This document shows, in pieces, positions 6,258 through 31,982 of a DNA stretch of 64,000 nt. The first letter of the stretch is position 1. Every line of letters starts with the position of its first letter. The notes under the pieces are model-generated. The model had not been told where the DNA came from. It did not search any database and saw only the letters and a program-made list of their open reading frames with translations. The stretch comes from a virus (Duplodnaviria; Caudoviricetes), in the IMG/VR virus record IMGVR_UViG_2914923772_000011, positions 10,054-74,053 of that record; one strand, written 5' to 3'. The translations under genes and the position numbers were made by a program.

Positions 6258-6460
6258 TGAAGATTGTAGATATTGCAGTAAAAAAAGTCTATCGTTTCAA
6301 CTGCCCGAATTGCCAGAGTAGGCTTGAGGCCGACAGCAGTGAGCTGACAGACATCGGAGGCAAAGTAAGCAAGTTTTATTGCCCCGTATGCCGTAAAGAC
6401 CGATATATAACTTGGTCTGACTTACGGAAAAAGATCGTCTACGAGGGTTCGCAGGAATAA
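6257..6460 (+). CDS. Small zinc-ribbon protein
   Basis: CPNC and CPVC pairs; coupled start/stop. Confidence 0.7.
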   Translation: MKIVDIAVKKVYRFNCPNCQSRLEADSSELTDIGGKVSKFYCPVCRKDRYITWSDLRKKIVYEGSQE

Positions 6461-6476
6461 CAAGCTCCTTTATGAA
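6450..6476 (+). promoter_or_regulatory. Phage promoter-like motif copy 1
   Basis: CGC aggaata ACA agctccttt ATG aa. Confidence 0.65.
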
Positions 6477-6490
6477 AGGAGTGATATTTC

Positions 6491-6718
6491 ATGGAAAAAG
6501 AAAACAAAGTTTTAACCTATGCAACAGCATTTGCTGTAGTATCAGGAGGCATCTTGATGTTGTCTATTGTACCTGCTGCACTCGGCATTAGACAAACGCA
6601 AAAAGCGCAGGCGTTTAATCTGATGGCAGATGGATATAGAGCAATGTCACTTGCTAAAACTTACGATGCAAAAGCAGCAGCGGAAGCGTTAAAACTGACA
6701 ATTAAAGAAGTGATGTAA
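6491..6718 (+). CDS. Small membrane protein (cassette gene)
   Basis: One hydrophobic segment; GAAAGGAG RBS; flanked by promoter motif and terminator. Confidence 0.75.
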   Translation: MEKENKVLTYATAFAVVSGGILMLSIVPAALGIRQTQKAQAFNLMADGYRAMSLAKTYDAKAAAEALKLTIKEVM

Positions 6719-6733
6719 CTGCTGAAGGATATT

Positions 6734-6770
6734 GAGCCGCTAACAACGGCTCTTTATCTTTTCTTTTTCT
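6734..6770 (+). terminator. Intrinsic terminator with CTAACAA loop
   Basis: GAGCCG-CTAACAA-CGGCTC plus T-tract. Confidence 0.8.
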
Positions 6771-6827
6771 AACTTAGATTAAAACCCGGACGAAGGTGAC
6801 AGGTATCTGTGTTAAATTAGTATCTGG

Positions 6828-6855
6828 AAAAATCCCCGGGTTGAAATTTTTGAAA
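6828..6855 (+). promoter_or_regulatory. Second-class conserved motif AAAAATCYCCGG..GA.ATTTT.GAAA (copy A)
   Basis: 22/28 identical to 36067-36094. Confidence 0.4.
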
Positions 6856-6877
6856 AACAATTTGAAAGGAGATCGTT

Positions 6878-7093
6878 ATGGAAGTCGTTTATGTAGTTGT
6901 CGGAATCTTGATTGGGTATGTCGTCTCATCTATCATTCGCCGAAAGCATCCTGTCGGTTTTCTGCGTATTGACAAGTCTGATCCGGACGGACCCTATCTT
7001 TTTCTTGAACTGAAAAAGAACGTTAATGAAATTATAGCTCAAAGAACTGTCCTATTAGAAGTGAAGCGTGAAGACTTTATTCCGCACAAATAA
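6878..7093 (+). CDS. Small membrane-anchored hypothetical protein
   Basis: N-terminal TM segment; GAAAGGAG RBS. Confidence 0.75.
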   Translation: MEVVYVVVGILIGYVVSSIIRRKHPVGFLRIDKSDPDGPYLFLELKKNVNEIIAQRTVLLEVKREDFIPHK

Positions 7094-7109
7094 CACTTCC
7101 TTTTATGGA
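7083..7109 (+). promoter_or_regulatory. Phage promoter-like motif copy 2
   Basis: CGC acaaata ACA cttcctttt ATG ga. Confidence 0.65.
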
Positions 7110-7138
7110 ACCCTATTAAAACGAAAGGAGAAACGAAT

Positions 7139-7531
7139 ATGGGTGAAGAAAACAGAAGTTTGTTGGAAGAGGAGATCAAAGCCGAAATTAAGCGCTTGGG
7201 ATCTCTCGAATCCGGAAGTCAGGAGCATACCACAGCAGTGGATAGTTTGACGAAGCTGTACAAACTGAAGCTCGAAGAGGATAAGAATGCCTATGAGCGT
7301 CTGGACAAGATCGAGAACCGTGAAATCGATCAGGAGTCTAAGACGGCTCAAATGGCAGAGTCTGTCAAAGATCGATACTTCAGATTTGGTATGGCTGCCG
7401 CTGAGCTGGTGCTGCCGTTGATGTTCTACGGCGTTTGGATGAGACGAGGTTTCAAGTTCGAACAGGACGGAACTTTCACCTCCCAGACATTCAGAGGTTT
7501 ATTCAGTCGATTCAGACCGACTAAGAAATAA
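7139..7531 (+). CDS. Coiled-coil protein with C-terminal membrane segment (cassette gene)
   Basis: GAAAGGAGAAA RBS; hydrophobic MAAAELVLPLMFYGVW. Confidence 0.75.
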   Translation: MGEENRSLLEEEIKAEIKRLGSLESGSQEHTTAVDSLTKLYKLKLEEDKNAYERLDKIENREIDQESKTAQMAESVKDRYFRFGMAAAELVLPLMFYGVWMRRGFKFEQDGTFTSQTFRGLFSRFRPTKK

Positions 7532-7544
7532 ACCGGTTCCAAAA

Positions 7545-7583
7545 GCGGAGAGTTCGTGTATACAACACGTTCTCTTCGTTTTT
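7545..7583 (+). terminator. Intrinsic terminator (loop ATACA)
   Basis: GCGGAGAG..CGTGT/ACACG..CTCTTCGT plus T-tract. Confidence 0.65.
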
Positions 7584-7589
7584 CTCCTG

Positions 7590-7616
7590 CTCGAAATTTA
7601 CAAGGGCTATTGTGAG
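7590..7616 (+). promoter_or_regulatory. Phage promoter-like motif copy 3 (variant)
   Basis: CTC gaaattt ACA agggctatt GTG ag. Confidence 0.55.
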
Positions 7617-7640
7617 AGATGTAAAAGTGCTTTTTATCTC

Positions 7641-7668
7641 TTGATAAAATACTGATGGCCGCTATACT
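7641..7668 (+). promoter_or_regulatory. sigmaA-type promoter TTGATA-N16-TATACT
   Basis: Near-consensus hexamers upstream of the ORF at 7705. Confidence 0.5.
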
Positions 7669-7704
7669 TAATAGTGCCACACAATATCAAGGAGGTAATT
7701 TGCA

Positions 7705-7920
7705 ATGAGCTTTTTTAACGACGCGCAGAGAGACGGTTTACTTACTGGACGGTATATTTGCAGTGAATGCGGAGGACTTATGGAATTTGAAGACGAGTGG
7801 GAAGATACTTTAGTATGTCCTGCTTGCGGTCACTCCGTCGATTTAGAGCATTATGGTATGGAGAACGATGAAGAATATGATGCTCTATATCCGACCAGAG
7901 ATCAAATCTGCGACGACTAA
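7705..7920 (+). CDS. Small acidic zinc-ribbon protein
   Basis: CSEC..CPAC; D/E-rich; AAGGAGG RBS. Confidence 0.8.
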   Translation: MSFFNDAQRDGLLTGRYICSECGGLMEFEDEWEDTLVCPACGHSVDLEHYGMENDEEYDALYPTRDQICDD

Positions 7921-7944
7921 TTAAGACTATTAGCAAAGGGGAAG

Positions 7945-7980
7945 GAGTCCTGACGAGGGCTCTTTCTCTTTTCTTTTTAT
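7945..7980 (+). terminator. Intrinsic terminator with TGACGA loop (variant of TAACAA)
   Basis: GAGTCC-TGACGA-GGGCTC plus T-tract. Confidence 0.75.
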
Positions 7981-7991
7981 AGGTGATTGAT

Positions 7992-8351
7992 ATGCGATAC
8001 CACTTTGACAAACCGGAAATTTACTTGTCCTTGTATGGCGAGCGTTATATTTGCGAGCATCCGGTTTACAATAGCTGCACTCTCTACAGAATTGAGAAAA
8101 GAGGTTTAGCAGTAATTCAGCAACGATTTGACTCCGAGACGAAAAGTACATGGTGGAGCGAAGTTGACCCTTGGATTACTGACGCTTTATATTTGCACCC
8201 TGATTTTCGAGAATACTTTGAAATGAGGGCTGGGGTGTGTACGGACGGAATATACCCTACTGTAACGGTTCGCCAAATTATGTGGGCATTAAAAATGAAA
8301 CCAATTCAGAAAGAACGATGGGAAACCGTATTCGATAGACGGGATATCTAA
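7992..8351 (+). CDS. Hypothetical phage protein
   Basis: AGGTGA RBS, intact ORF. Confidence 0.7.
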   Translation: MRYHFDKPEIYLSLYGERYICEHPVYNSCTLYRIEKRGLAVIQQRFDSETKSTWWSEVDPWITDALYLHPDFREYFEMRAGVCTDGIYPTVTVRQIMWALKMKPIQKERWETVFDRRDI

Positions 8352-8352
8352 G

Positions 8353-8379
8353 CGCAAAAAACGCATCTCCCTTTATGAA
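8353..8379 (+). promoter_or_regulatory. Phage promoter-like motif copy 4
   Basis: CGC aaaaaac GCA tctcccttt ATG aa. Confidence 0.6.
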
Positions 8380-8410
8380 AACCATTGAATTTTGAAGGGA
8401 GACATGGATT

Positions 8411-8560
8411 ATGAAAACACTAAAGAACAAGCTATATGCTGTAGTATTACTTATTTGTGGGTACTTACCGGTACTTATTGACAAAGATGCAACAGCGTTA
8501 GTATTCTTTGCGTTTATCGCAATACCGTTGTTCTTTGCAAAAGAAAACTGGATTTATTGA
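8411..8560 (+). CDS. 49-aa two-helix membrane peptide (not in the ORF track)
   Basis: MKTLKNKLYAVVLLICGYLPVLIDKDATALVFFAFIAIPLFFAKENWIY; GGGAG RBS; bounded by promoter motif and terminator. Confidence 0.7.
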   Translation: MKTLKNKLYAVVLLICGYLPVLIDKDATALVFFAFIAIPLFFAKENWIY

Positions 8561-8565
8561 GGATT

Positions 8566-8593
8566 GAGCCGCTAACAACGGCTCTTTTCTTTT
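8566..8593 (+). terminator. Intrinsic terminator with CTAACAA loop
   Basis: 8563-8587 is identical over 25 bp to 6731-6755. Confidence 0.8.
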
Positions 8594-8620
8594 CGCCAAA
8601 ATTACAGCTCCTGTTATGGA
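8594..8620 (+). promoter_or_regulatory. Phage promoter-like motif copy 5
   Basis: CGC caaaatt ACA gctcctgtt ATG ga. Confidence 0.65.
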
Positions 8621-8652
8621 AAACGATGCTATTTGAAAGGAGTAAAAGGAGC

Positions 8653-8868
8653 ATGGACGAAATGAAAATTGGTTCTAAATTCACTACGAGCATTATCTCG
8701 AAATTGGCGAGTTTGGCAATCCGAAAGAAATTTGGTTATGATGTAAAACTGAATTTGAATGAGGTAAAAGCCACAGTCGTTGACGGAAAGACGCATGTTC
8801 ATCTGGATATAGATGCCGATCTTGAGAAAGATGAACTTACTAAAATCCTGAAAAGTATTGGTTTGTAA
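8653..8868 (+). CDS. Small hypothetical protein (cassette gene)
   Basis: AAAGGAG RBS; MDEMKIGSKF start. Confidence 0.75.
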   Translation: MDEMKIGSKFTTSIISKLASLAIRKKFGYDVKLNLNEVKATVVDGKTHVHLDIDADLEKDELTKILKSIGL

Positions 8869-8878
8869 AATCTGAAAG

Positions 8879-8906
8879 GAGCTGCTAACAACGGCTCTTT
8901 TCTTTT
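8879..8906 (+). terminator. Intrinsic terminator with CTAACAA loop
   Basis: GAGCTG-CTAACAA-CGGCTC plus T-tract. Confidence 0.75.
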
Positions 8907-8910
8907 GCCG

Positions 8911-8937
8911 CGCGAAATTTACAAGTCTTATTATGAG
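8911..8937 (+). promoter_or_regulatory. Phage promoter-like motif copy 6
   Basis: CGC gaaattt ACA agtcttatt ATG ag. Confidence 0.7.
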
Positions 8938-9010
8938 AGACGGGTTAGCTCAGTTGGTAGAGCGCCACACTTCCGTGGAGGTCGTCGGTTCGAATCCGAT
9001 ACAGTCTCTC
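8935..9010 (+). ncRNA. tRNA-like RNA / pseudo-tRNA (canonical D and T arms, shrunken anticodon arm, elongated acceptor stem, no CCA)
   Basis: TAGCTCAGTTGGTAGAGC D arm; GTCGG-TTCGAAT-CCGAT T arm; CCAC-ACTTCC-GTGG anticodon arm; GAGAGAC/GTCTCTC closing stem. Confidence 0.75.
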
Positions 9011-9044
9011 TTGCTTTTTATTTTCGCATGAAAGGAGAAAAGAC

Positions 9045-9365
9045 ATGAGCATCGATCAGCTTGATCTAATCTTGTATGACATGTACCGCATGGACGCTTG
9101 GCTGCCGCCTTTGTTTGGTAAATGGACGGAAGATTATAAAAAAGCGAGTTACTCACAATGGGCTGTCGACGAGCTCAGAGATTTTATCGCCGAACGGATT
9201 TACCCTCGAAAAGAAGGGTCTATTGATGAATTCTGTAAGCTCACGCACGAATTCATGATGAAGACAGCTAAGTATGCGAGGGTGAATCCAAACACAAGTC
9301 TTATGTTCCGATCTGCCAGTGAAATGGCAGCGAACATTTTAGACCTTCTAAGGGCTATGGAATAA
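9045..9365 (+). CDS. Hypothetical protein, paralog of 10458-10763
   Basis: SYSQWAVDE versus SYQQWAAYE; GAAAGGAGAAAAGAC RBS. Confidence 0.75.
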   Translation: MSIDQLDLILYDMYRMDAWLPPLFGKWTEDYKKASYSQWAVDELRDFIAERIYPRKEGSIDEFCKLTHEFMMKTAKYARVNPNTSLMFRSASEMAANILDLLRAME

Positions 9366-9389
9366 CAAAAGCATGAAAGGAGAAAAGAC

Positions 9390-10214
9390 ATGAACAAAAA
9401 CCAAGCAATTCAAAAGTTGCTGCATAAGTCAGGGCTTTGTATCAGGAAATACTCACCTGTTGCATTGTCTTGTGTAGCATCAGCCGGCGTGGTAGTCACG
9501 GCAATTGCAGCAGCCAAAGCGACCCCACGAGCAGTAGCGTTAGTTTATGCAGACAGTCGCAAAAAGCATGATGGCGATCCATATGCGTACACCAAGAAAG
9601 AGGCGTTCATCGCTGCATGGAAATGTTATATTCCGGCAGTGGCATTTGGAGCTTCTACTATCGCTTGCATTATGGGTGCCAATGCCTTAAATCGACGCCA
9701 ACAGGCAGCACTAACAAGTGCGTATGCTCTCGTCCAAAGTTCTTATAAGGAATATAAGGACAAGCTGAAAGAACTCTATGGAGAAGAAGCACATAATGCA
9801 ATCATGGATTCCATCATCAAGGAAAAGTGCAAGGACATCAGCATCTCTGCTAATGGAGGTTGGTACGATTCTTCTCTTGACTTTGGCGAAGGCATGGAGC
9901 CTGAGGTTACTCGTACTTTCTACGATAGTTTTTCACAAAGATATTTTGTGTCAACAATCGAGAAAGTTATCCAGGCTGAGTACCATCTGAACCGCAATTT
10001 TATGTTCGCAGGGGTTATCCCACTTAATGACTTTTACGAGTTTCTTGGGCTTGAAAAGACGGAACTCGGAGATGCCGTAGGATGGTCAAGCTGTAATGGC
10101 GATATTTATTGGATCGACTTTAACCATCACCGACTCACTTTGGATGACGGCATGGAGATATATGTTATTGACATGGTTTTTGAGCCTACAGCTGAGTGGA
10201 TGGAAGATCTGTAA
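9390..10214 (+). CDS. DUF6353-like phage protein, paralog 1
   Basis: KYSPVALSCVASAGVVVTAIAAAKATPRA...YDSFSQRYF...LNDFYEFLGL pattern shared with 10780 and 13301. Confidence 0.75.
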   Translation: MNKNQAIQKLLHKSGLCIRKYSPVALSCVASAGVVVTAIAAAKATPRAVALVYADSRKKHDGDPYAYTKKEAFIAAWKCYIPAVAFGASTIACIMGANALNRRQQAALTSAYALVQSSYKEYKDKLKELYGEEAHNAIMDSIIKEKCKDISISANGGWYDSSLDFGEGMEPEVTRTFYDSFSQRYFVSTIEKVIQAEYHLNRNFMFAGVIPLNDFYEFLGLEKTELGDAVGWSSCNGDIYWIDFNHHRLTLDDGMEIYVIDMVFEPTAEWMEDL

Positions 10215-10217
10215 GTT

Positions 10218-10244
10218 CGCAAAAAATACATTTCACTTTATGAA
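10218..10244 (+). promoter_or_regulatory. Phage promoter-like motif copy 7
   Basis: CGC aaaaaat ACA tttcacttt ATG aa. Confidence 0.7.
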
Positions 10245-10266
10245 AACGAAAAGGAGGTTTCGCTTT

Positions 10267-10437
10267 ATGAATAATGCAAAATTGGTTAAAATCCTGGGTC
10301 TTGTCGCTACCGCAGTAGGTATGGGGGCTACGCTCCTCACTGACTGGGTGAACGAGAAGAAGATGGAAGAAAAAATTGATGAACGCATCAATGAGAAGCT
10401 TGCCGCACTTAGCGATGAAGAAGATGAGGAGTCCTAA
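10267..10437 (+). CDS. 56-aa membrane-anchored peptide with acidic tail (cassette gene)
   Basis: MNNAKLVKILGLVATAVGMGATLL...; AAGGAGG RBS. Confidence 0.75.
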   Translation: MNNAKLVKILGLVATAVGMGATLLTDWVNEKKMEEKIDERINEKLAALSDEEDEES

Positions 10438-10458
10438 CAAGGGCTCTTCTTCTTTATT
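10429..10458 (+). terminator. Intrinsic terminator with TAACAA loop
   Basis: GAGTCC-TAACAA-GGGCTC plus T-rich tract. Confidence 0.75.
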
Positions 10459-10763
10459 TGAACGATATGTGTGATGCAAGCACGGCTGTTTCGATCATCC
10501 AACGATATGTTGGTGAGCATCTGTTCAGCCCATCCTTCACATGGCCAAAGTATGAATTCAGAAAAAGGTCATATCAGCAATGGGCTGCATATGAAATCTG
10601 TGATCGAATCATGGACAAGCCTTTCGACGATCCAATCACCATCATCGAAAACTTCATGTTCGAGATGGCTATGTATGCTTGTTACGGCGAGGATGAGCAG
10701 CGTAGCTTTATATTTCAGAATGCGGTCGAAACAGCTGAAGAATTAAGTCTACTATTTGTTTAA
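10458..10763 (+). CDS. Hypothetical protein, paralog of 9045-9365
   Basis: Shared SY.QWA motif; start codon uncertain. Confidence 0.65.
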   Translation: MNDMCDASTAVSIIQRYVGEHLFSPSFTWPKYEFRKRSYQQWAAYEICDRIMDKPFDDPITIIENFMFEMAMYACYGEDEQRSFIFQNAVETAEELSLLFV

Positions 10764-10779
10764 CCGAAAGGAGAAAATC

Positions 10780-11541
10780 ATGCCTAAACAAAGTTTAGCA
10801 AGCATTGCCAAAGGTGTACGGACGGCAATGAAAAAACATAGTCCTGAAATTCTCACCGGTATCGGAATTGCCGGCATGATTACCACCACTGTTATGGCGG
10901 TAAAAGCAACCCCAAAAGCTCTGATTCTGCTTGAAGAGAAAAAAGATGAGTTGGATACGGACAGACTTGAGCCGAAGGACATCATCAAGACAGCTTGGCC
11001 TTGTTATATTCCGGCGGCTGTCGTAGGCTCCATCTCTGTATTCTGCCTGATTGGGGCAAGCTCGACTAATCTTCGTCGAAATGCTGCGCTGGCAACGGCA
11101 TATACCCTTTCGGAGTCGACTCTCAAAGAGTATCAGGAAAAAGTCGTTGAGACAATCGGTGAGAAAAAGGAACAGTCCATTCGAGACTCTGTGTCGAAAG
11201 ACAAGATGGTTAAGAACCCTGTTCGAGAAATTATTCTCACCGAAAGCGGCGGGAACACAATCTGTTACGATGTCTTATCCGGACGATATTTCAAGTCTGA
11301 CAGAGATAAGATTACCAGAGTCATGAATGAACTGAATCGGCAGATGCGTGACGAAATGTATGTCACACTAAACGATTTCTACTATGAACTCGGTTTAGAC
11401 GGAACCAAGATGGGCGATATGCTCGGATGGAACATTGATAAGGGTTACATTGACCTTGCTTTCTCGTCCCAGCTGGATGCAAATGGCACCCCTTGCCTGG
11501 TGATCGACTATCAGGTAGCACCAGTTTACGACTATCAGTAA
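10780..11541 (+). CDS. DUF6353-like phage protein, paralog 2
   Basis: KKHSPEILTGIGIAG...CYDVLSGRYF...LNDFYYELGL. Confidence 0.8.
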   Translation: MPKQSLASIAKGVRTAMKKHSPEILTGIGIAGMITTTVMAVKATPKALILLEEKKDELDTDRLEPKDIIKTAWPCYIPAAVVGSISVFCLIGASSTNLRRNAALATAYTLSESTLKEYQEKVVETIGEKKEQSIRDSVSKDKMVKNPVREIILTESGGNTICYDVLSGRYFKSDRDKITRVMNELNRQMRDEMYVTLNDFYYELGLDGTKMGDMLGWNIDKGYIDLAFSSQLDANGTPCLVIDYQVAPVYDYQ

Positions 11542-11549
11542 ATTTGCCG

Positions 11550-11576
11550 CGCGAAATTTACAACTTATTTAATGGA
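11550..11576 (+). promoter_or_regulatory. Phage promoter-like motif copy 8
   Basis: CGC gaaattt ACA acttattta ATG ga. Confidence 0.7.
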
Positions 11577-11618
11577 AGAACATTCCACAATTTCACACAT
11601 TTGAAAGGAGATTTCACA

Positions 11619-11873
11619 ATGAACAACAATGAGATTATGAACAACGAGATCGTTGAAGCTACCGAAGAGGTTATCGAGAACGCTGGTTTGAGCAAGGGCG
11701 TAAAGATTGCTGCGGGTATCGGCTTGAGCGTAGTTGTAGGCGTGGTCGTCTACAAGTATGTAGCAAAGCCGGTGATCGCAAACATCAAAGCCCAGATCGA
11801 GCAGAAGAAGATGGCTGCTGAGGAGAAGACGGTTATCTTAGAAGAATCTGATGTTGTCACTGAAGACAACTGA
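11619..11873 (+). CDS. 84-aa single-TM protein (cassette gene)
   Basis: IAAGIGLSVVVGVVVY; GAAAGGAG RBS. Confidence 0.75.
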   Translation: MNNNEIMNNEIVEATEEVIENAGLSKGVKIAAGIGLSVVVGVVVYKYVAKPVIANIKAQIEQKKMAAEEKTVILEESDVVTEDN

Positions 11874-11900
11874 AAATGCGAATTTGAGAAGTTCGGATAA

Positions 11901-11940
11901 GGGAGAGTACCTGTAACAAGGTGCTTTCCCTTTTTCTTTA
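11901..11940 (+). terminator. Intrinsic terminator with GTAACA(A) loop
   Basis: GGGAGAGTACCT-GTAACA-AGGTGCTTTCCC plus T-tract. Confidence 0.8.
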
Positions 11941-11962
11941 TCTCTCGAAAGGAGAAAAAAAT

Positions 11963-12151
11963 ATGCAGCAGTATCAATATGACGGTCCTGTTATGCGATT
12001 CGATGATTGCGTTCAGCATCGTTGGAAAGCAACTACTGTTGCTCCGACGGAAGCGAAAGCGAAGAGCAATCTCGCCTATCGATATAAAAAAGAAAACGGC
12101 TTGATGCCGAACACAAAAATTACTCTGCCCGGTAAGCTGATTCCGGCATAA
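11963..12151 (+). CDS. Small hypothetical phage protein
   Basis: GAAAGGAGAAAA RBS. Confidence 0.7.
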   Translation: MQQYQYDGPVMRFDDCVQHRWKATTVAPTEAKAKSNLAYRYKKENGLMPNTKITLPGKLIPA

Positions 12152-12167
12152 GAAAGGAGATTACCCA

Positions 12168-12773
12168 GTGGAAGATTACAAGTCTAATTCTGATAAAGCT
12201 CGTCAGGAGCAGCAGTCAGAAAAGAAAGTTGAGGCGGTTATTACCGGGGCTGCAAAAACTCGAAAAAAAGGTGAGATGCAAAAATTTGCAGATGTATTTA
12301 TTGCCGAGGATGCAAACAATGTCAAATCTTATATTTTGATGGAGGTCATTGTGCCTGCTGTCAAGAAAGCGATTTCTGACATTGTCACTACCGGTATCGA
12401 TATGATCCTGTACGGCGAGGCAGGTCGAAGCAAGAAAAACGGAACGGCGTCTAAGGTGTCTTACCGAAACTATTATGAACGGGACGCGGACAGAGTGCGT
12501 GCAGGTTCCGTTGGCAACAGACGCAATACACCTGATTATGATGATATTCTCTTCGATACCCGTGGAGATGCGGAAGCGGTTCTCGATGCAATGAACGATA
12601 TCATCAGTCAGTATGGAACGGTGAGCGTGTCCGATTTCTATGATCTCGCTCGTGTTCCCAATGATAATTTCACTATGAACCGCTACGGTTGGACAAACAT
12701 TGGCGGTGCAACTGCGGTACGAGTTCGAGATGGTTATATTCTGAAACTGCCTCGTGCTATCCCGCTGAATTGA
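12168..12773 (+). CDS. Conserved hypothetical phage protein
   Basis: GAAAGGAG RBS with GTG start; intact 201-aa ORF in operon. Confidence 0.75.
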   Translation: MEDYKSNSDKARQEQQSEKKVEAVITGAAKTRKKGEMQKFADVFIAEDANNVKSYILMEVIVPAVKKAISDIVTTGIDMILYGEAGRSKKNGTASKVSYRNYYERDADRVRAGSVGNRRNTPDYDDILFDTRGDAEAVLDAMNDIISQYGTVSVSDFYDLARVPNDNFTMNRYGWTNIGGATAVRVRDGYILKLPRAIPLN

Positions 12774-12786
12774 AAGGAGAAAAATA

Positions 12787-13279: not shown

Positions 13280-13300
13280 TGAAAAGGAGATTTTATAAAC

Positions 13301-14218
13301 ATGAAAAATAAGACTGAAATCATGAAGAGCGTGAGCGGTGTGGCTTCCAAGACCGTTATGAAGCTCAAGAAACACAGCCCCGAGATTCTCGTTGTGGCTG
13401 GTATTGCCGGTACGGTCGTAAGTGCCGTTCTCGCTTGCAAGGCCACCACTAAGGTAGCAGAGATTCTCGATGAAACTAAGGGTACTCTCGACACCATTCA
13501 TGAAGGTGTGGAAACCGGTGCAATCAACGGTCAGGAGTATACGACTGAGGACGGCAAGAAGGACACGGTTGTTGTCTATGCCCAGACCGGAATGAAGCTC
13601 GCAAAGCTTTATGCTCCTGCTATTATTCTCGGCACTCTGTCCATCACCAGCATTCTGGCATCCAACAATATTCTTCGCAAGCGCAATGTAGCTCTTGGCG
13701 CTGCCTATGCCGCTATTGATAAGAGCTTCAAGGAATATCGCGGTCGTGTCATCGAGCGCTTCGGAGAGCAGGTCGATACCGAACTGAAGTATGGCATCAA
13801 GGCGAAGAAGTTCGAGGAAATCGAGGTTGATCCCGAGACCGGCAAGGAGAAGAAGGTTAAAAAGACTGTGATGGTCGCTGATCCTAATCTCCAGAGCGAT
13901 TACGCTGTATATTTCGACAGCAAGAGCCGCAACTATGAGACTAACCCCGATTACAACCGCATGTTCCTCAAGGCACAGCAGGCATTTGCAAATGACAAGC
14001 TTCAGACCCGTGGTCACCTCTTCCTGAATGAGGTTCTGGACGATCTGGATCTTCCTCGTACCCCTGCTGGTCAGATTGTCGGTTGGACAAAGGATGGTCC
14101 GGATGGCTATGTTAATTTCCGCATCGTTGAGGTAGAGCGCGAGACCGAAGACGGTCGTCATGAGCCGGCACTTCTGCTCGACTTCAATGTTGAGGGCAAC
14201 ATCTGGGAAAAGATGTAA
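13301..14218 (+). CDS. DUF6353-like phage protein, paralog 3
   Basis: KKHSPEILVVAGIAG...LFLNEVLDDLDL. Confidence 0.8.
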   Translation: MKNKTEIMKSVSGVASKTVMKLKKHSPEILVVAGIAGTVVSAVLACKATTKVAEILDETKGTLDTIHEGVETGAINGQEYTTEDGKKDTVVVYAQTGMKLAKLYAPAIILGTLSITSILASNNILRKRNVALGAAYAAIDKSFKEYRGRVIERFGEQVDTELKYGIKAKKFEEIEVDPETGKEKKVKKTVMVADPNLQSDYAVYFDSKSRNYETNPDYNRMFLKAQQAFANDKLQTRGHLFLNEVLDDLDLPRTPAGQIVGWTKDGPDGYVNFRIVEVERETEDGRHEPALLLDFNVEGNIWEKM

Positions 14219-25727: not shown

Positions 25728-26481
25728 AAACACCGAGGTTATGGGCTGGGAGCACGCCATTCGTGGTATGCGAAACCCTAAGAACTCTTGGGAGAAGACA
25801 GACTCATATCCTGCTGTTGACTGTGGAAAGTGCGGTAAAATCGAGAGAGAGGATATTTGCAAAAAAGAGGACCGTAATTGTACGGGTTTTGAATGCTTTG
25901 AAGTGGGCCCGAATGACCTGAAGCTTATGACGACCCTTCGCAACGCAGGCACAGACCATCGTAAGTTCATGCGGATGATTACGGTCTATCTTGACATCAC
26001 CGCCCCGCTGTATTGGTGGAAGGAGTTCGATACTTACAAGGTTGGTACGGTTGCCAATTCCTGTTCCACGATGCATAAGATTGCGGATAAGGAGTTTACG
26101 CTGGCGGATTTTAGTTGCGAGCATCTGGATCGCGAACCTTATCATCGCAACTGGATCGAGAGCGTAATCGTCGATGAAGATATCACTTCGCCACACAAGG
26201 TATGGATGACACCATTTGATGTTCTTAGATGCACGATCGAGATGCTAAACGCATATCGTGAAAACTACCTTGAAACCAAGGATAAACAGGATTGGTGGCA
26301 GATGATCCAGCTTCTCCCGAGCTCTTACAACCAGCGCCGGACAGTTATGCTAAACTACGAGGTTCTGGCGAACATCTATAAGTCCCGTCGGAACCACAAG
26401 CTCGACGAGTGGCATACGTTCTGTGACTGGATTGAGAGCCTGCCTTATTCTGAGCTTATTACTGGCGAAAAGAAAGGATGA
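25714..26481 (+). CDS. Divergent ThyX-like (flavin-dependent thymidylate synthase fold) protein
   Basis: DHRKFMRMITVYLDITAPLYWWKEFDTYK..NSCSTMH and LLPSSYNQRRTVMLNYEVLANIY..R..HKL.EW resemble ThyX, but no RHRx7S motif. Confidence 0.5.
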   Translation: MLKIENTEVMGWEHAIRGMRNPKNSWEKTDSYPAVDCGKCGKIEREDICKKEDRNCTGFECFEVGPNDLKLMTTLRNAGTDHRKFMRMITVYLDITAPLYWWKEFDTYKVGTVANSCSTMHKIADKEFTLADFSCEHLDREPYHRNWIESVIVDEDITSPHKVWMTPFDVLRCTIEMLNAYRENYLETKDKQDWWQMIQLLPSSYNQRRTVMLNYEVLANIYKSRRNHKLDEWHTFCDWIESLPYSELITGEKKG

Positions 26482-26673
26482 AAGATGATAAAATTCGTAG
26501 TCAATCAGCTTCCTTATTACGGAGAGCTGTGTCCTCTATGGACGATGTGCAGTAAAAATGCAAAGGAACATGAATGCCCGAGATACTGGGATAAATATAA
26601 AGTCTGCTTAGATGAAAACCCACATGAATGTGAGCACCTTATTGAGACAGGGAAACTCTAATAAATGTTCCTG

Positions 26674-26700
26674 CACGAAAAAAACACCCCCTATTATGAA
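26674..26700 (+). promoter_or_regulatory. Phage promoter-like motif copy 9 (variant)
   Basis: CAC gaaaaaa ACA ccccctatt ATG aa, directly followed by AAAGGAGG. Confidence 0.6.
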
Positions 26701-26715
26701 AGGAGGTAACGCACA

Positions 26716-26907
26716 ATGAATTATTTTCTGGCAGTTAATGATCGGCAACTTGGAACTTGCTTGAGAATGCTGTTTGCTGAAAAACTTCAACCTGCTGTCC
26801 AAACCGTGTTGAACGAAAAGGGCAAGATTGAGTTTCATATTAGCATTGCAGCAGATCAGGAAGTGTTCGAAGAGCTGAACGAACGCTACAAGATCATGAT
26901 TTCGTAA
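26716..26907 (+). CDS. 63-aa hypothetical protein (cassette gene)
   Basis: RBS; bounded by promoter motif and terminator. Confidence 0.75.
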   Translation: MNYFLAVNDRQLGTCLRMLFAEKLQPAVQTVLNEKGKIEFHISIAADQEVFEELNERYKIMIS

Positions 26908-26925
26908 GTTACTCGATTTCGAAGG

Positions 26926-26957
26926 TAAAGGGGCCGTAACAAGCCCTTTTACTTTTG
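26926..26957 (+). terminator. Intrinsic terminator with CGTAACAA loop
   Basis: TAAAGGGGC-CGTAACAA-GCCCTTTTA plus T-tract. Confidence 0.7.
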
Positions 26958-27112
26958 TTATATTTGTGGTAACATACTGTAAGGAGGTCATCAAATGAGA
27001 ATTATTCGAGACATATTTTGGATATTGTTGATTATTACTGTGCCGGTAGCAATCTTTGATAAATTCTTTAGACCTTATTGCATGACCGTTATCGAAAGGA
27101 TGTGTAACAAGG

Positions 27113-27310
27113 ATGAAAGTTAAATCCAGAATGTCCTGTCCGGTTCGAAGAAAAGACGGCACATGGACAACTGTTATCAAAGAATTTGAAGAAGATATTC
27201 CGGATCTCGGACGAGAAGAGCTTATCTGCAACAAATGCGGACGCCCTGATTATCCGAAATGCAAGGAAACGGTTTGTGAAGCCTGGAAATACCACAAATC
27301 AAAAAAATAA
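27113..27310 (+). CDS. Small Cys-containing hypothetical protein
   Basis: CNKC..CKETVC. Confidence 0.6.
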   Translation: MKVKSRMSCPVRRKDGTWTTVIKEFEEDIPDLGREELICNKCGRPDYPKCKETVCEAWKYHKSKK

Positions 27311-27320
27311 CATTTTATGT

Positions 27321-27354
27321 AAGAGCTGAGGTTAAACCTTGGCTCTTATTTTTT
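27321..27354 (+). terminator. Intrinsic terminator (TTAAA loop)
   Basis: AAGAGC.GAGG-TTAAA-CCTT.GCTCTT plus T-tract. Confidence 0.65.
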
Positions 27355-27510
27355 GTGTAAAGGAGAAAACAATGCTTGCCAGAGAAGCGACAAAAGCGGA
27401 TATTCAGGCTGTTTGTGACCGCCTTCGGGAAGCTAAGGAACAACGTCAGCTTGATATTCAAATAAACCAGGCTATTGCACTGGTGAATCGTAATCACAGG
27501 AGGAAAAAAT

Positions 27511-27846
27511 ATGACGCCGAACGACTATCAGCAGGCAGCTCTTCGCACTGCTCCAAAAGATTTACCGCCTGACCGGCTTCTGCTCAATGGCTTAATGGGT
27601 CTGAACGGAGAAGCCGGCGAAGCAATTGATATTTTGAAAAAGCATCTGTTTCAGGGGCACGAACTGGACACTGCACATATGGCTAAAGAGCTTGGAGATG
27701 TGGCTTGGTATCTCGCTGTAAGTGCAAACGCCATTGGGTATGACCTTGAAACCATCATGCAGATGAATGTGGATAAACTGAAAGCCAGGTATCCAGACGG
27801 TTTCGACGCTGAACACAGTCTGCATCGCGATCAGGATGATATTTAA
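27511..27846 (+). CDS. MazG-like nucleotide pyrophosphohydrolase
   Basis: GLNGEAGEAIDILKK..KELGDVAWY. Confidence 0.85.
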   Translation: MTPNDYQQAALRTAPKDLPPDRLLLNGLMGLNGEAGEAIDILKKHLFQGHELDTAHMAKELGDVAWYLAVSANAIGYDLETIMQMNVDKLKARYPDGFDAEHSLHRDQDDI

Positions 27847-27858
27847 GGAGGGTTTTCT

Positions 27859-29769
27859 ATGAATGAACAATTCGGAGAAAAGGTAAAAGCTATTTTTGAT
27901 AGCATTACCGTTCTTCAGGCAAAAGATAGCGATTTGAAACGAGATAACGCCAACATCAACGGTGACTCCCCTATGGGGGCTATGCTGCAATATGGTGCCA
28001 ATACTGCCAAGGAGTACAATTTGGAGTATTTAATTAAACCTGCAATTGCGGAACTCCACCGTGATGGTTGGATTCATATACACGATCTTGACTTCTATGC
28101 ATGGACGACGACCTGCACGCAGATTGAGCTTCGCAAGCTCTTCAAGAATGGATTCAATACCGGTCATGGTCATCTGAGAGCACCAAAAAGCATTGGCTCG
28201 TATGCTGCTCTGGCTGCTATTGCCATTCAGTCTAATCAAAATGACCAGCATGGCGGACAGAGTGTTGTGGACTTCGATTACGCAATGGCCGATGGTGTCC
28301 GTTATACCTATCAAAAGTACCTGAAAGAGGGTTACGCGATTTGCGAACGCCTCAATGACCTAAAAGACAAAGCATGGATTCTCGACTATGCTATGGAAAA
28401 GACTACTCGTGATACTTATCAGGCTATGGAGGGGTTCATTCATAATCTGAATACCATGCATTCCCGTGCCGGCGCTCAAGTTCCATTCAGCTCTATTAAC
28501 TATGGCACTGATACTTCTTGGGAAGGGCGTCTTGCTATTGAGCAGCTTCTACTTGCTACAGAAGCAGGACTCGGTCATGGCGAAACACCTATCTTCCCGA
28601 TTCAGATTTTCCGTGTCAAAGAGGGAATCAACTATAATCCCGATGACCCAAACTATGACCTGTTCAAACTGGCGATGAAGGTCAGTGCAAAGCGTCTGTT
28701 TCCTAACTTCGCTTTTATTGACGCACCTTTCAATCTCCAGTATTACAAGCCCGGTCATCCTGAAACGGAGGTTGCCTACATGGGTTGCCGTACTCGTGTA
28801 ATGGGTAATGTTTATGACCCGTCTCGTGAGATCGCTCCCGGAAGAGGTAATCTGAGTTTCACTTCTATCAATCTTCCGAGGCTTGCTATTGTGGTTGATG
28901 GCGATATTCCTCAGTTTTTCAAACTGCTTGACGGAATGCTCGACAAAACCATGCAGCAGCTTCTCGATCGATATGAGATTCAAGCGTCAAGAGTAGTTAG
29001 AAACTTTCCGTTCCTCATGGGAGAAGGCGTATGGATGGACTCTGACAAGCTTGGGCCGGATGACGAAGTTGGAGAGGTATTGAAACACGGAACCCTCTCT
29101 ATTGGTTTCTGTGGGCTTGCAGAGTGTCTTGTGGCTTTGACAGGGCATCATCATGGTGAAGATGAAGCATCCCAGGAACTCGGCTTACGCATTGTCGGTT
29201 ATATTCGGAACTATTGTGATGAGAAAAGCAAGCAGTTTGGTATGAATGTAACCTGTCTTGCTACTCCTGCTGAAAGCTTAGCCGGACGCTTACTTAGAGC
29301 TGACCGAAAAGAATTTGGTATTATTAAGGGAGTTACCGATCGTGACTACTACACCAACAGTTTTCATGTTCCGGTCTATTATCATCTCCCGGCTCTTAAG
29401 AAGATCGACATTGAAGCTCCATACCATGCTCTTACCAATGCCGGTCATATTTCCTATGTAGAACTGGACGGTGATCCGACCAAAAACCTGGCTGCTTTTG
29501 AGCGTGTTGTAAGACACATGAAAGAAGCTGGTATTGGTTACGGAAGCATCAATCATCCTGTAGACCGAGATCCTGTCTGCGGTTATAACGGAATTATCAA
29601 TGATACATGCCCCTGCTGCGGACGGAGCGAAGCCGATGGAGTTCCGTTCGAACGCATTCGTCGTATCACTGGATATTTGGTCGGAACTCTTGATAAGTGG
29701 AATGACGCTAAGCGTGCGGAGGAGCGAGATCGTGTCAAGCATGAAGTTGATTCGAATTTCGGGGATTGA
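27859..29769 (+). CDS. nrdD: Anaerobic (class III) ribonucleoside-triphosphate reductase
   Basis: HIHDLD, MGCRT, GNLSFTSINLPR, ATPAES, YYTNSFHV, CxxC pairs, RRITGYL glycyl-radical motif. Confidence 0.95.
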   Translation: MNEQFGEKVKAIFDSITVLQAKDSDLKRDNANINGDSPMGAMLQYGANTAKEYNLEYLIKPAIAELHRDGWIHIHDLDFYAWTTTCTQIELRKLFKNGFNTGHGHLRAPKSIGSYAALAAIAIQSNQNDQHGGQSVVDFDYAMADGVRYTYQKYLKEGYAICERLNDLKDKAWILDYAMEKTTRDTYQAMEGFIHNLNTMHSRAGAQVPFSSINYGTDTSWEGRLAIEQLLLATEAGLGHGETPIFPIQIFRVKEGINYNPDDPNYDLFKLAMKVSAKRLFPNFAFIDAPFNLQYYKPGHPETEVAYMGCRTRVMGNVYDPSREIAPGRGNLSFTSINLPRLAIVVDGDIPQFFKLLDGMLDKTMQQLLDRYEIQASRVVRNFPFLMGEGVWMDSDKLGPDDEVGEVLKHGTLSIGFCGLAECLVALTGHHHGEDEASQELGLRIVGYIRNYCDEKSKQFGMNVTCLATPAESLAGRLLRADRKEFGIIKGVTDRDYYTNSFHVPVYYHLPALKKIDIEAPYHALTNAGHISYVELDGDPTKNLAAFERVVRHMKEAGIGYGSINHPVDRDPVCGYNGIINDTCPCCGRSEADGVPFERIRRITGYLVGTLDKWNDAKRAEERDRVKHEVDSNFGD

Positions 29770-30232
29770 ACCGGAATCCATTGTTGACGGGGAAGGAATC
29801 CGGTATGTGATATTCGCACAGGGTTGTCCGCATCATTGCCCCGGCTGCCACAATCCTCAAACTCACCCGTTCGGTGGGGGAAAACTCGTGTCGATCGAAG
29901 ATATACTCGATGATATTTCAAAAAGAAAAAATTGGATAGACGGCATCACCATTTCCGGAGGCGAGCCGTTCTGTCAGATTTACCAGTGTGCTCTGATCGC
30001 TGAAAAAGCTCATCAAATGGGGCTCAGCGTTTGGTGCTACACTGGTTATCTTTTTGAAGACTTGTACAAGCAAGGCATCGAGCTTCTTAAACATATTGAT
30101 GTACTCGTTGACGGCCCGTTCGTACAGGCTGAAAAATCGTTGGAGCTTGATTTCAGAGGAAGCCGTAACCAGCGAGTAATTGATATCCCGGAAAGCTTGA
30201 AAGAAGGCGTAGCAATCTTGAAACAAACTTAG
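29741..30232 (+). CDS. nrdG: Anaerobic RNR activating radical SAM protein
   Basis: GCPHHCPGCHN CxxxCxxC; SGGEP; GSRNQRVID. Confidence 0.95.
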   Translation: MKLIRISGIEPESIVDGEGIRYVIFAQGCPHHCPGCHNPQTHPFGGGKLVSIEDILDDISKRKNWIDGITISGGEPFCQIYQCALIAEKAHQMGLSVWCYTGYLFEDLYKQGIELLKHIDVLVDGPFVQAEKSLELDFRGSRNQRVIDIPESLKEGVAILKQT

Positions 30233-30252
30233 AAGAAAGGAGTACCTGCATC

Positions 30253-30459
30253 ATGGCGAACACTACTAATCCTCGACGAAATGCCGAAGGATATTCTGAC
30301 CCGACCGCTTACGAAGCCCTTAAGAACATTGAGCGTGAAGAAGACGAAAGATTTCATAGGCTGCTGCATACACTGTTTTACTTGTGTGAATTGGCTGACT
30401 TCGAGATCGAAGGTCGGATTATTCTGGTTGATAAACGGAACGGACGGGTTTGGAGATAA
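30253..30459 (+). CDS. Small hypothetical protein
   Basis: GAAAGGAG RBS. Confidence 0.7.
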   Translation: MANTTNPRRNAEGYSDPTAYEALKNIEREEDERFHRLLHTLFYLCELADFEIEGRIILVDKRNGRVWR

Positions 30460-30489
30460 GAGAAATGAGTCCGTATATACTTGAAAATT

Positions 30490-30830
30490 GTGTGAATTTT
30501 AGCCCGGTTTTGTTTGGCGGATTCGGGCAAAAGCCCACTTTTGAAAAATTTTTGAGCGTGTACGGACAATTTTCTTGAAAAAAGCCCAGAAAAAGTGGGC
30601 AAAAGCCCGGTTTTGAAAACCAAAAGTGGGCAGAAAAATTCGGAGGCATTTTCTGAAAATGGCACTTTTTAGGCGTTTTTTGCCCCAAAATGGCCGATTT
30701 GCGCCGATTTGAAATTTTTTTTGTGAAAAAAAGCCCACTTTCCCACTTTTATTTCTTATTTAATTGCGATAAAAAGTTTTAATAAATATATAAATAGGGC
30801 GAGAAAAGTGGGCATTTGGCCAAAAGCCAA
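30490..30830. other. Probable phage replication origin: six (G)CCCACTTT/AAAGTGGG(C) repeats in both orientations plus an AT-rich tract
   Basis: Copies near 30533, 30591, 30622, 30733, 30742, 30804; AT-rich 30750-30796; no credible ORF. Confidence 0.55.
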
Positions 30831-30900
30831 AATACATAGCACAAGTCGATGGAAATGTCAAGACTTTTTGCCGAAAGTTCTTCCTTTTTCTTTCAAGCTG

Positions 30901-30909
30901 TGCTATACT
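30901..30909 (+). promoter_or_regulatory. Extended -10 promoter TGcTATACT
   Basis: TGn-TATACT about 6 nt upstream of the structured RNA. Confidence 0.55.
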
Positions 30910-30915
30910 ATAAGA

Positions 30916-31085
30916 GCCACACAATCTAATATGTTCAAGTCGTTTAGGGAAAACTGCTTTGGTAAAAAGTGTTTTCTCTCTTTACTCATTTCATTTGTCC
31001 CTTTGCGGCTTGATTGAGATTGTGTGGCAACAATGAGGGTTGACACTTTTTCGGTGCGTCTCTCGTTGTGGGGGCGCACTTTTTT
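30916..31085 (+). ncRNA. About 170-nt structured RNA / attenuator leader ending in an intrinsic terminator
   Basis: 12-bp stem 30916-27/31017-28, further stems 30935-42/31006-13 and 30946-50/30998-31002; terminator 31054-31085. Confidence 0.6.
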
Positions 31086-31114
31086 AATGCCCTCGGAAAG
31101 GATGGGATAATGAG

Positions 31115-31885
31115 ATGAGAAAGTTCTTGGCAGCGTGCATGGCGATTGTCATGATATTTACGATTGCAGGTTGCAGTTCAGAGGGGCATGAAGGAGAAGC
31201 TAAAACTCCATCGGGTTCCAGTATTCAAAAAGGCAAGGATTATCAAAAAGTAGTTGACGAATTTGAAAGTAGTGGTTTCACAAACATCAAACTTGAAAAA
31301 CTTGACGACCTTGTTACTGGTTGGCTTACAAAAGACGGTGAGGTTGAATCTGTTTCCGTGGATGGCGATACTGGATACTCTGCTGATGCTTGGTATCCGG
31401 CTGATGTCGAGGTTATAATCACATATCACACATTCCCGGAAAAAGAAACTTCTAAAACAGATAGCGAATCCGTTTCAACCGAAGAGCCTGCCGTTGATAT
31501 TTTGACAGTAGATAATTCTCCAGAATTGGCAGCAATACTTTCTCTTAAAGCAGATATGGATCAATCGTATGCCGATTTTGCAGAGGCTCATAAGAACCAG
31601 GTTATTGAGTTTAATGGCTGCATTACATATCTTACAAACCACGATAACTACGACACTCGATATGATTTGCTAATCAGTGCAGGAGACTATGTGGATGAAA
31701 ATACTGCAAACCCTGGTCCAACTTTTAAGTTTAAGGATGTTGGGGTATATGATTTAGGAGACGGGTTTACGCTTGCTGATTATATCAAAGTCGGCAGCAA
31801 TGTAAAAATACAGGCTAAAGTGCGGAGCTACAATTCTGATACAGGTCTCTTTGAACTTGATCCAGTAAGTGTAGAAGCTCGATAA
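31115..31885 (+). CDS. Lipoprotein moron (PASTA-like plus DUF4839-like OB domain); candidate lysogenic conversion or superinfection exclusion factor
   Basis: Signal peptide with IAGC lipobox; own upstream promoter and downstream terminator. Confidence 0.7.
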   Translation: MRKFLAACMAIVMIFTIAGCSSEGHEGEAKTPSGSSIQKGKDYQKVVDEFESSGFTNIKLEKLDDLVTGWLTKDGEVESVSVDGDTGYSADAWYPADVEVIITYHTFPEKETSKTDSESVSTEEPAVDILTVDNSPELAAILSLKADMDQSYADFAEAHKNQVIEFNGCITYLTNHDNYDTRYDLLISAGDYVDENTANPGPTFKFKDVGVYDLGDGFTLADYIKVGSNVKIQAKVRSYNSDTGLFELDPVSVEAR

Positions 31886-31902
31886 CAAACAACTTTATAT
31901 TT

Positions 31903-31939
31903 GACCGAGATGCTTAAACGGTGTCTCGGTCTTTTTTTT
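31903..31939 (+). terminator. Intrinsic terminator
   Basis: GACCGAGATGC/GTGTCTCGGTC plus T8. Confidence 0.85.
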
Positions 31940-31955
31940 ATGTCTTTTTCCGCCG

Positions 31956-31982
31956 CGCGAAAAATACATTCTCTTTTATGAA
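31956..31982 (+). promoter_or_regulatory. Phage promoter-like motif copy 10, heading the operon that contains the RNA polymerase
   Basis: CGC gaaaaat ACA ttctctttt ATG aa. Confidence 0.7.

Follow-up and report, generated by a model that had tools for sequence, protein, structure and literature searches.

Among the described systems close to the one considered here are those of two phages. Thermus phage P23-45 encodes two-barrel RNA polymerases (RNAPs) that use short motif promoters lying within -30 to +1 (PMC10770324), and the Bacillus prophage SPbeta encodes YonO, a single-chain polymerase of ~100 kDa which transcribes one late operon from an undefined promoter (PMC5467207). We analysed a 64-kb window of phage DNA (bases 10054-74053 of the 74-kb provirus record IMGVR_UViG_2914923772_000011 of IMG/VR), in which ten copies of a rigidly spaced three-box motif, CGC-N7-ACA-N9-ATG in its literal form, stand before early and middle genes, and in which an open reading frame (ORF) of 906 amino acids (aa) is predicted to encode a polymerase of the same superfamily as YonO. 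The ten sites are probably compact promoters of about 28 bp read by that polymerase, as judged from their sequence and from the predicted fold of the protein. Motif positions are numbered below from the C of CGC (position 1), so that the G of ATG is G25.

The likeness with P23-45 holds for the enzymes, which are single-chain two-barrel proteins (gp96 in the virion, the non-virion gp64; PMC10770324), gp64 relatives being among the structural matches of the 906-aa protein. It also holds for the signals, i.e. short motifs at most ~30 nt from the start, repeated before early genes and present only in phages that carry the enzyme. The window's enzyme differs by its fused helix-turn-helix (HTH) domains, its promoter by having three boxes, and the family lives in Gram-positive mesophilic hosts, with some temperate members; moreover, starts and binding were mapped for P23-45, whereas the present promoter is predicted from sequence. 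As with YonO, the phage is temperate and its polymerase, of ~100 kDa, is encoded immediately before the late genes, but the window motif marks early and middle units. T7-type promoters (23 bp, from -17 to +6) are similarly compact, with a part that is bound upstream as duplex, a TATA-like part that melts and a start at a purine (..TATAATG-AGACC.. in the motif variants of actinophages), and the present promoter, like those of T7, is predicted to be orthogonal to the host. The polymerase families are unrelated, however: Pfam gives the 906-aa ORF no T7-family domain, its predicted fold is two-barrel, and no T7-family (right-hand) RNAP was found among the other large ORFs scanned, which are DNA polymerase/primase, NrdD, helicase and terminase. 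The virion RNAP of phage N4 illustrates a possible strategy, that of a virion-carried enzyme transcribing early genes from its own promoters, but the promoters of N4 are hairpins in the DNA, and the enzyme that reads them is T7-like. No N4-type hairpin was found here: the spacers pair with their downstream sequences no better than with permuted ones, and there is no self-complementarity in the conserved boxes.

The element itself has very probably been seen before. The announcements of the Gordonia cluster DJ phages Vardy and Conley report a 50-bp/43-bp intergenic motif, present in five copies per genome and read as a sigma70 -10, without mention of a polymerase (PMC9671010, PMC10868162). Crocheter, a relative of that cluster, has TCGCATATATTACACGTCCTATAATGAGACC before its central small genes, and Vardy encodes a homolog of the 906-aa polymerase. 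Unlike in the present analysis, the motif was linked there neither to the polymerase nor to other phyla. A previous reading of the window made without database searches (hereafter the sequence-only reading), which first drew attention to the motif, had guessed that similar repeats might have been noticed in actinophages, and it was right.

RESULTS

A discrete set of ten sites

The ten copies reported by the sequence-only reading were all found where it had placed them, all on the + strand, and its tally of the boxes was correct: CGC in 8/10, ACA in 9/10, ATG in 9/10 and TT before ATG/GTG in 9/10. In the 64-kb window, the literal pattern matches seven times on the + strand and once, at an unrelated place, on the - strand. 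These eight matches compare with 0.62 expected for both strands, and eight or more were obtained in none of 100 shuffles. When a 30-nt weight matrix was made from the ten sites, their scores ranged from 29 to 38 bits (17-34 bits in leave-one-out scoring) and no further position on either strand of the window exceeded 8 bits. Since every other position is at or below 8 bits, the motif constitutes a discrete set with exactly ten members in the window. The late region (36-64 kb) is devoid of copies in the matrix scan, again as claimed, and the other 10 kb of the provirus record contain no additional exact copy.

Conservation extends from about position -2 to position +28 and ends there. It defines three boxes, CGC(R) at positions 1-4, (T)ACA at 10-13 and C-T-W-T-T-A-T-G at 18-25 (with W = [A, T], R = [A, G]); the first two are separated by an A/T-rich stretch, and the sequence from G25 on is purine-rich at all copies (GAAAGG, GGAACC, GAGAGA, etc.). 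The sites are not palindromic and occur in a single orientation, co-directional with the genes. All ten lie after the stop codon or terminator of one gene and before the Shine-Dalgarno (SD) sequence of the next, or before an RNA gene, two of them overlapping the last 10 nt of the upstream ORF. G25 is 17-91 nt from the next start codon, save at 8911 where the RNA gene follows instead.

Copy 1 (6450-6477; CGCAGGAATAACAAGCTCCTTTATGAAA) overlaps the stop of ORF 6257-6460, has its SD, AAAGGAG, at positions 26-32 and precedes the ATG at 6491; copy 2 (7083-7110) likewise overlaps a stop, that of ORF 6878-7093, and is followed by the start ATG at 7139. Copy 3 (7590-7617), the weakest of the set with 29 bits (CTC.. 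and GTG), is followed by the ATG at 7705 and by a hairpin, GAGAGAT..ATCTCTT, with which its predicted transcript starts. Copy 4 (8353-8380) has GCA instead of ACA and lies 2 nt past the stop of ORF 7983-8351. Copy 5 (8594-8621) is directly 3' of a terminator-like hairpin (8566-8584) with its T-run, and the next start is the ATG at 8653; copy 6 (8911-8938) is 3' of another hairpin with a T-run (8879-8897), a near-copy of the former, and precedes a tRNA-like RNA. Copies 7 (10218-10245) and 8 (11550-11577; TAATG) follow at 4 and 9 nt, respectively, the stops of ORFs 9390-10214 and 10756-11541; their next starts are the ATGs at 10267 and 11619. Copy 9 (26674-26701; CAC..) has an SD, GGAGG, at positions 29-33 and precedes the ATG at 26716. 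Copy 10 (31956-31983) lies 25 nt past a + strand intrinsic-terminator-like hairpin (31903-31939, i.e. a 12-bp stem at 31903-31931, then T8), which would insulate it from upstream transcription, and it heads the operon 32060-35887 made of nuclease ORFs, the polymerase gene and a small conserved ORF.

The motif accompanies the polymerase gene in phages of three bacterial classes

Among close relatives, 80 IMG/VR loci with a polymerase 76-100% identical to that of the window contain 121 matrix sites, all on the polymerase strand, and none above 15 bits in the 10 kb downstream of the polymerase gene. One site, homologous to copy 10, is conserved about 935 nt upstream of that gene. A pattern scan of IMG/VR revealed many multi-copy loci; the polymerases found on motif-bearing fragments are down to 52% identical to the window's, and the polymerase is present in 12 of the 14 near-complete records that contain the pattern (60-100% identity). 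The two others are apparent exceptions. One (G025) has 14 copies, and its contig breaks off 3.7 kb past the helicase gene, to continue only with the HNH/terminase genes, the break being precisely where the polymerase is expected; the other (G017) has a single match, probably due to chance. Pooling of the pattern scan with the relatives' loci gave 509 distinct gut-phage sites and the consensus t-CGC-R-AAAA-wt-ACA-N4-CT-W-TTATG-R-A-R.

When the search was widened to related phages, as the sequence-only reading had suggested, here with hosts of several phyla, the architecture (CGC)-N6-TACA-N5-T[A/T]T[A/T]ATG was found again, on the coding strand only, in almost every polymerase-encoding genome examined. 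The polymerases of these phages are 40-57% identical to that of the window, and their hosts belong to three bacterial classes. The copies, with the same boxes and spacing, cluster at the start of the early region: 15 in FP_oengus (Faecalibacterium), 9 in P092 (Lactococcus; box 1 is TTT), 10 in 1706 (Lactococcus; 3' box TATAGTAG), 8 in JEGGS and 21 in Paella (both Arthrobacter), 9 in Crocheter (Gordonia), 10 in Bing (Streptomyces), 14 in ReqiPepy6 (Rhodococcus), at least 4 in Pippin15 (Curtobacterium) and 6 in the oral phage D_HF4_2. Phages 1706 and Pippin15 gave no match with the first pattern; k-mer counts then yielded their variant, ..TACA-N5-TATAGTAG. In FP_oengus and JEGGS, as in the window, one copy also lies directly upstream of the nuclease-polymerase genes. 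The placement of the motif (co-directional, at gene starts and not in the late region) is the same in at least 17 genomes.

A version of the motif with 13 specified bases was searched for in five Clostridia genomes totalling 21.8 Mb (Hungatella hathewayi, Clostridium leptum DSM 753, Faecalibacterium hattorii, Enterocloster lavalensis and Cuneatibacter caecimuris). Each of the 28 strict matches has a polymerase homolog on its own strand no more than 28 kb downstream, and the rest of these genomes has no match; the same pattern written back to front gave one match. Because all matches stand by polymerase homologs, the motif is not a host promoter class. A signal which is constant in hosts of three classes and absent from host chromosomes calls for a phage-encoded reader. 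In C. leptum DSM 753, the matches belong to a prophage (scaffold DS480346.1, 117984-145695) with motif copies at the same relative spacing as in the window. Its polymerase is 100% identical to the window's, which suggests that the host of the window phage was C. leptum or a close relative.

The 906-aa ORF is predicted to be a two-barrel RNA polymerase

The 906-aa ORF (32889-35609, + strand) is matched in Pfam by HTH families only, at residues 869-905 (HTH_38, GerE, Sigma70_r4_2), plus a weak HTH-like stretch near the N terminus. In PHROGs it matches from end to end phrog_4291, 'RNA-dependent RNA polymerase', which is also the RefSeq name of the family, given by similarity only. Its sequence contains the metal-binding loop DxDGD (G516-ADFDGD-522), and in an alignment of 78 homologs (47-62% identity) D518, D520, G521 and D522 are invariant, as are R471-x-P473 and the longer segment S515-G-A-D-x-D-G-D522; R471 and P473 would, from their position, be the equivalents of R446 and P448 of Rpb1 (PMC2919709). 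An N-terminal peptide, L-x-HYG-x4-SGRYPWGSG-xx-PYQH (residues 1-34; 32889-32990), is almost invariant in the 78 homologs. It is modelled with low confidence (pLDDT 45-55) and could be a targeting, processing or interaction peptide.

A search of the PDB by sequence returned nothing useful. The AlphaFold2 model built on the 78-homolog alignment has a pLDDT of 89 and a pTM of 0.82. With it, Foldseek gave 26 matches at E<=1e-3, all of them two-barrel RNAPs (QDE-1, plant RDR2, and gp62, gp64 and gp96 of Thermus phages), and, at weaker E-values, the RNAP of the crAss-like phage phi14:2 and cellular beta-prime/Rpb1 subunits. Alignment of the predicted catalytic core (residues 235-744) with VIA-align gave Z scores of 15.5 for QDE-1 (root-mean-square deviation 4.4 over 378 aa), 15.4 for RDR2 and 14.1 for P74-26 gp62; the Z score for P32 gp64 was 11.8. 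The modelled fold is thus that of a two-barrel RNAP of the QDE-1/YonO-like branch, as had been proposed from sequence for the homologs of FP_oengus and phage 1706 (PMC2919709; bioRxiv 10.1101/842583), and the protein would be a DNA-dependent RNAP. Its family is very large, with 2,619 clusters at 50% identity that match at E<=1e-3.

Directly 3' of the polymerase gene, an ORF of 87 aa (35624-35887, + strand; ..LTTFDNPYNP..) has no Pfam match. A protein of this type (..LTTFDNPYNPFEQF..GY..L.R...TS..) is encoded just after the polymerase in every lineage examined, i.e. the window, FP_oengus, JEGGS, Crocheter, Bing, P092 and 1706, and is a possible cofactor of the enzyme.

Transcription would start at G25, unlike at a sigmaA promoter

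Terminator hairpins stand 10-25 nt upstream of the copies at 8594, 8911 and 31956. Downstream, the statement of the sequence-only reading that the ribosome-binding site follows immediately is true for 6450 and 26674, where the SD begins at motif positions 26-29 and the start codon is 17-18 nt past G25, and the tRNA-like RNA of copy 6 begins at positions 25-29. Because terminators lie just upstream and an SD or a structured RNA starts 1-5 nt past G25, initiation is forced by the sequence to lie within the motif, at or next to G25, in keeping with the earlier proposal of a start at or near the ATG.

The tRNA-like RNA (8935-9012, + strand) is recognized by the Rfam tRNA model at 8939-9007 (39.6 bits for a threshold of 29), and ARAGORN gives no tRNA call for it. 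When folded from G25 it forms a cloverleaf, with an anticodon arm too short for a normal tRNA; the outer stem, GAGAGAC/GTCTCTC, begins at G25 and ends before the T-run, so that the acceptor-like stem also serves as a terminator stem. Its counterpart in FP_oengus (2935-3006), called 'tRNA-???' with a 2-nt anticodon by ARAGORN, has its 5' end at motif position 26. Such RNAs with a shortened anticodon arm are found directly 3' of a motif copy in several lineages, other instances being at about 23622 and 24010 of the P092 record and at about 31110 of the 1706 record.

A start at G25 would put the T-W-T-T-A-T box at about -6 to -1, which is not the position of a sigma70-type -10. This matters for the explanation that comes next after ours, according to which the host RNAP holoenzyme reads T-A/T-T-A/T-A-T as a -10, a phage activator or sigma-like factor, by binding the CGC and ACA boxes, makes up for the lack of a -35, and the two-barrel polymerase serves late genes only, as YonO does. 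In P092 and in the actinophages the 3' hexamer is indeed a complete TATAAT, and it was published as a sigma70 -10 (PMC9671010, PMC10868162). A cascade from host RNAP to activator, polymerase operon and late genes would solve the question of how the circuit is seeded and would fit the late role of YonO (PMC5467207); the factor could be encoded by the four ORFs (5177-6460) that precede the first motif copy, upstream of which there is a sigmaA-like site (TTGATT-17-TATCAT, 5138-5166).

Several observations speak against it. With positions 19-24 taken as the -10, no -35-like hexamer was found 16-18 bp upstream: positions -4 to +1 are unconserved, unlike TTGACA, and the conserved boxes fall within the would-be spacer. 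The sole TTGACA-like element is TTTACA, at positions 8-13, only 5 bp from the 3' box; its use as a -35 with a -10 located 17 bp downstream was rejected, as there is no conservation past position 28. A scan with the sigmaA consensus picks up one of the ten sites. If transcription began where a sigma70-type start is expected, 6-8 nt past the hexamer and hence near position 31, the copies at 6450 and 26674 would yield RNAs without their SD (positions 26-33), and the tRNA-like RNAs of the window and of FP_oengus would be truncated. At the 509 gut-phage sites T24 is 97% conserved, but position 20, the would-be A-11, is A in only 246 (48%), whereas G25, outside the hexamer, is 96% conserved; in 1706 and Pippin15 the hexamer is TATAGT, the box reading TATAGTAG. 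The compact promoter thus does not fit sigmaA -35/-10 spacing, as first suggested from the window. A factor of this kind would also have to work with the RNAPs of Clostridia, Bacilli and Actinobacteria, and none that is conserved has been reported among the shared genes, where the only transcription-type protein is the polymerase with its HTH domains (bioRxiv 10.1101/842583). Pfam, applied to the ~45 early and middle ORFs of the window, many of which have no match at all, detected no sigma factor or other HTH regulator. The host RNAP-plus-factor explanation is weakened by these data and we consider it unlikely.

The motif is unlikely to be an RNA signal or another type of DNA site

A role of the motif in the RNA, as a processing site, a translational signal of the 'start-associated' type or one arm, rich in pyrimidines, of a hairpin masking the ribosome-binding site, could account for its strand specificity, and several sites have a pyrimidine-rich spacer (CTCCTTT) with complementarity to the AAAGGAG which follows. 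A hairpin of this type, whether as a promoter or as an anti-RBS structure, looked attractive at 6450, 8353 and 31956. Over 414 sites, however, the complementarity proved to be compositional: the mean pairing energy was -5.06 kcal/mol for a site with its own partner versus -4.6 to -4.9 kcal/mol with permuted partners. CGC and ACA, the most conserved boxes, have no pairing partner, and little RNA would hold the motif because terminators lie directly upstream. The start-associated sequences of cluster K mycobacteriophages precede the start codons of protein genes at a constant distance of a few bp; with the window motif, start codons lie anywhere between 17 and 91 nt past G25, and one of the copies stands before a gene for an RNA. 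An RNA-level function is, in our opinion, very improbable. Least credible of all is a DNA site unrelated to initiation (repressor operator, replication/primase signal, nuclease or packaging site): repetition and rigid spacing would suit it, and the phage encodes a primase-polymerase and several nucleases, but the sites are non-palindromic and all point in the direction of the genes; they occur at gene starts only and never in the late region, a placement shared by at least 17 genomes.

Other features of the region

Between copy 10 and 40 kb, the only terminator-like sites of the + strand have short stems (5-7 pairs, none above 7), and no sigmaA-like site above 9/12 was found. Since neither a strong terminator nor such a site intervenes, the promoter at 31956 may, speculatively, also feed the late genes by read-through. 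In the early region, the terminator hairpins at 6734-6752, 8566-8584, 8879-8897, 10426-10449, 11899-11932 and 26920-26957 have a common loop, (C)TAACAA or GTAACAA, and several of them are near-identical (GAGCCGCTAACAACGGCTC).

The four ORFs between the integrase gene and the first motif copy (5177-6460) correspond to DUF6431, phrog_6058, phrog_11237 and a zinc-ribbon protein, and have no motif promoter; no CI-like repressor was recognized in the window. Three paralogous early-region genes (9390-10214, 10756-11541 and 13301-14218) belong to phrog_2152, annotated as DUF6353 in FP_oengus, which likewise has three copies. In the head module, the DUF7211 motif of Pfam (HHGI.GMKWGVRR) begins two small proteins (37841-38242 and 39955-40485); their genes flank the terminase gene, and the second is just upstream of the portal gene. 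Pfam detects no DUF7211 in the N terminus of the polymerase, even at E<=1.

DISCUSSION

The sequence-only reading saw in the motif a non-sigmaA promoter used either by the 906-aa polymerase or by the host RNAP assisted by a phage factor. The predicted fold, the co-occurrence of motif and polymerase and the constraints on the start site support it, and make the first of its two options the probable one. In the mechanism that we propose, the fused sigma4/LuxR-like HTH domains of the polymerase would bind the upstream CGC and ACA boxes as duplex DNA, the three boxes being on roughly one face of the helix. The T/A-rich 3' box would melt, and RNA synthesis would begin at G25 or at the next purine, giving transcripts that start with G-R-A-R-R. 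The enzyme would possibly be helped by the conserved 87-aa protein encoded beside it. In this way the polymerase would transcribe the small early genes (6.4-12 kb) and the tRNA-like RNA, as well as a middle unit (26.7 kb) and its own operon, shared with the nucleases (32 kb).

Several points weigh against recognition by the polymerase. The 3' box is exactly the sigmaA -10 consensus, TATAAT, in the actinobacterial and P092 variants, and it was for a sigma70 -10 that the repeat was taken in the announcements of Vardy and Conley (PMC9671010, PMC10868162). YonO, the sole characterized relative, transcribes late and not early genes (PMC5467207). As the polymerase gene sits behind a motif copy and a strong terminator, the circuit would depend on itself and need a seed: virion-carried enzyme, leaky read-through and weak recognition by the host RNAP are candidates, the first of which cannot serve at induction in a prophage such as this one. 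A small activator could hide among the early ORFs, since many of them have no Pfam match. The scaffold MT835495 (unverified) encodes the polymerase and shows two copies only, both just upstream of the polymerase gene. Finally, it is from sequence and predicted fold that the motif is assigned to the polymerase.

A bolder form of the proposal, which we regard as possible but rather doubtful, is that the virion contains the polymerase and injects it along with the DNA, the motif copies being its early promoters, and that three sigma4/LuxR-like HTH motifs each read one of the boxes, which follow one another at about one helical turn. In that case the enzyme would be a minimal polymerase that includes its own sigma function, and its promoter would have changed very little as the phages passed between Actinobacteria, Bacilli and Clostridia; a strategy similar to that of N4, crAss and P23-45 would operate in ordinary-sized siphoviruses of Gram-positive bacteria, temperate ones included. 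The leads are that the motif marks early and not late genes, that the polymerase gene adjoins the head genes and that the HYG..SGRYPWGSG peptide is invariant. The GenBank record of Lactococcus phage 1706 labels the polymerase homolog, orf75, as 'structural protein', and the record of ReqiPepy6 repeats the label; if it stems from virion proteomics, the enzyme would come into the cell together with the DNA.

Promoters specific for a phage polymerase are of a known kind; as far as could be found, this promoter class, its link with the polymerase and its constancy across phyla are new. Our literature search found no promoter assigned to this polymerase family, the announcements of Vardy and Conley being the only prior notice of the motif. 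The family is common in prophages of human-gut Clostridia, in dairy Lactococcus phages and in hundreds of SEA-PHAGES actinophages, where it is still annotated as 'HTH DNA-binding protein' or 'RNA-dependent RNA polymerase'. The link that we propose between the polymerase and a 28-bp signal re-reads the 'sigma70 -10 motif' of the Gordonia phages, predicts the transcription units of many phage genomes, and makes directly testable how a sigma-less ~100-kDa relative of the cellular RNAPs finds its promoters. If the enzyme works alone, a promoter that is near constant from Streptomyces to Faecalibacterium hosts would lend itself well to orthogonal gene expression in Gram-positive bacteria.

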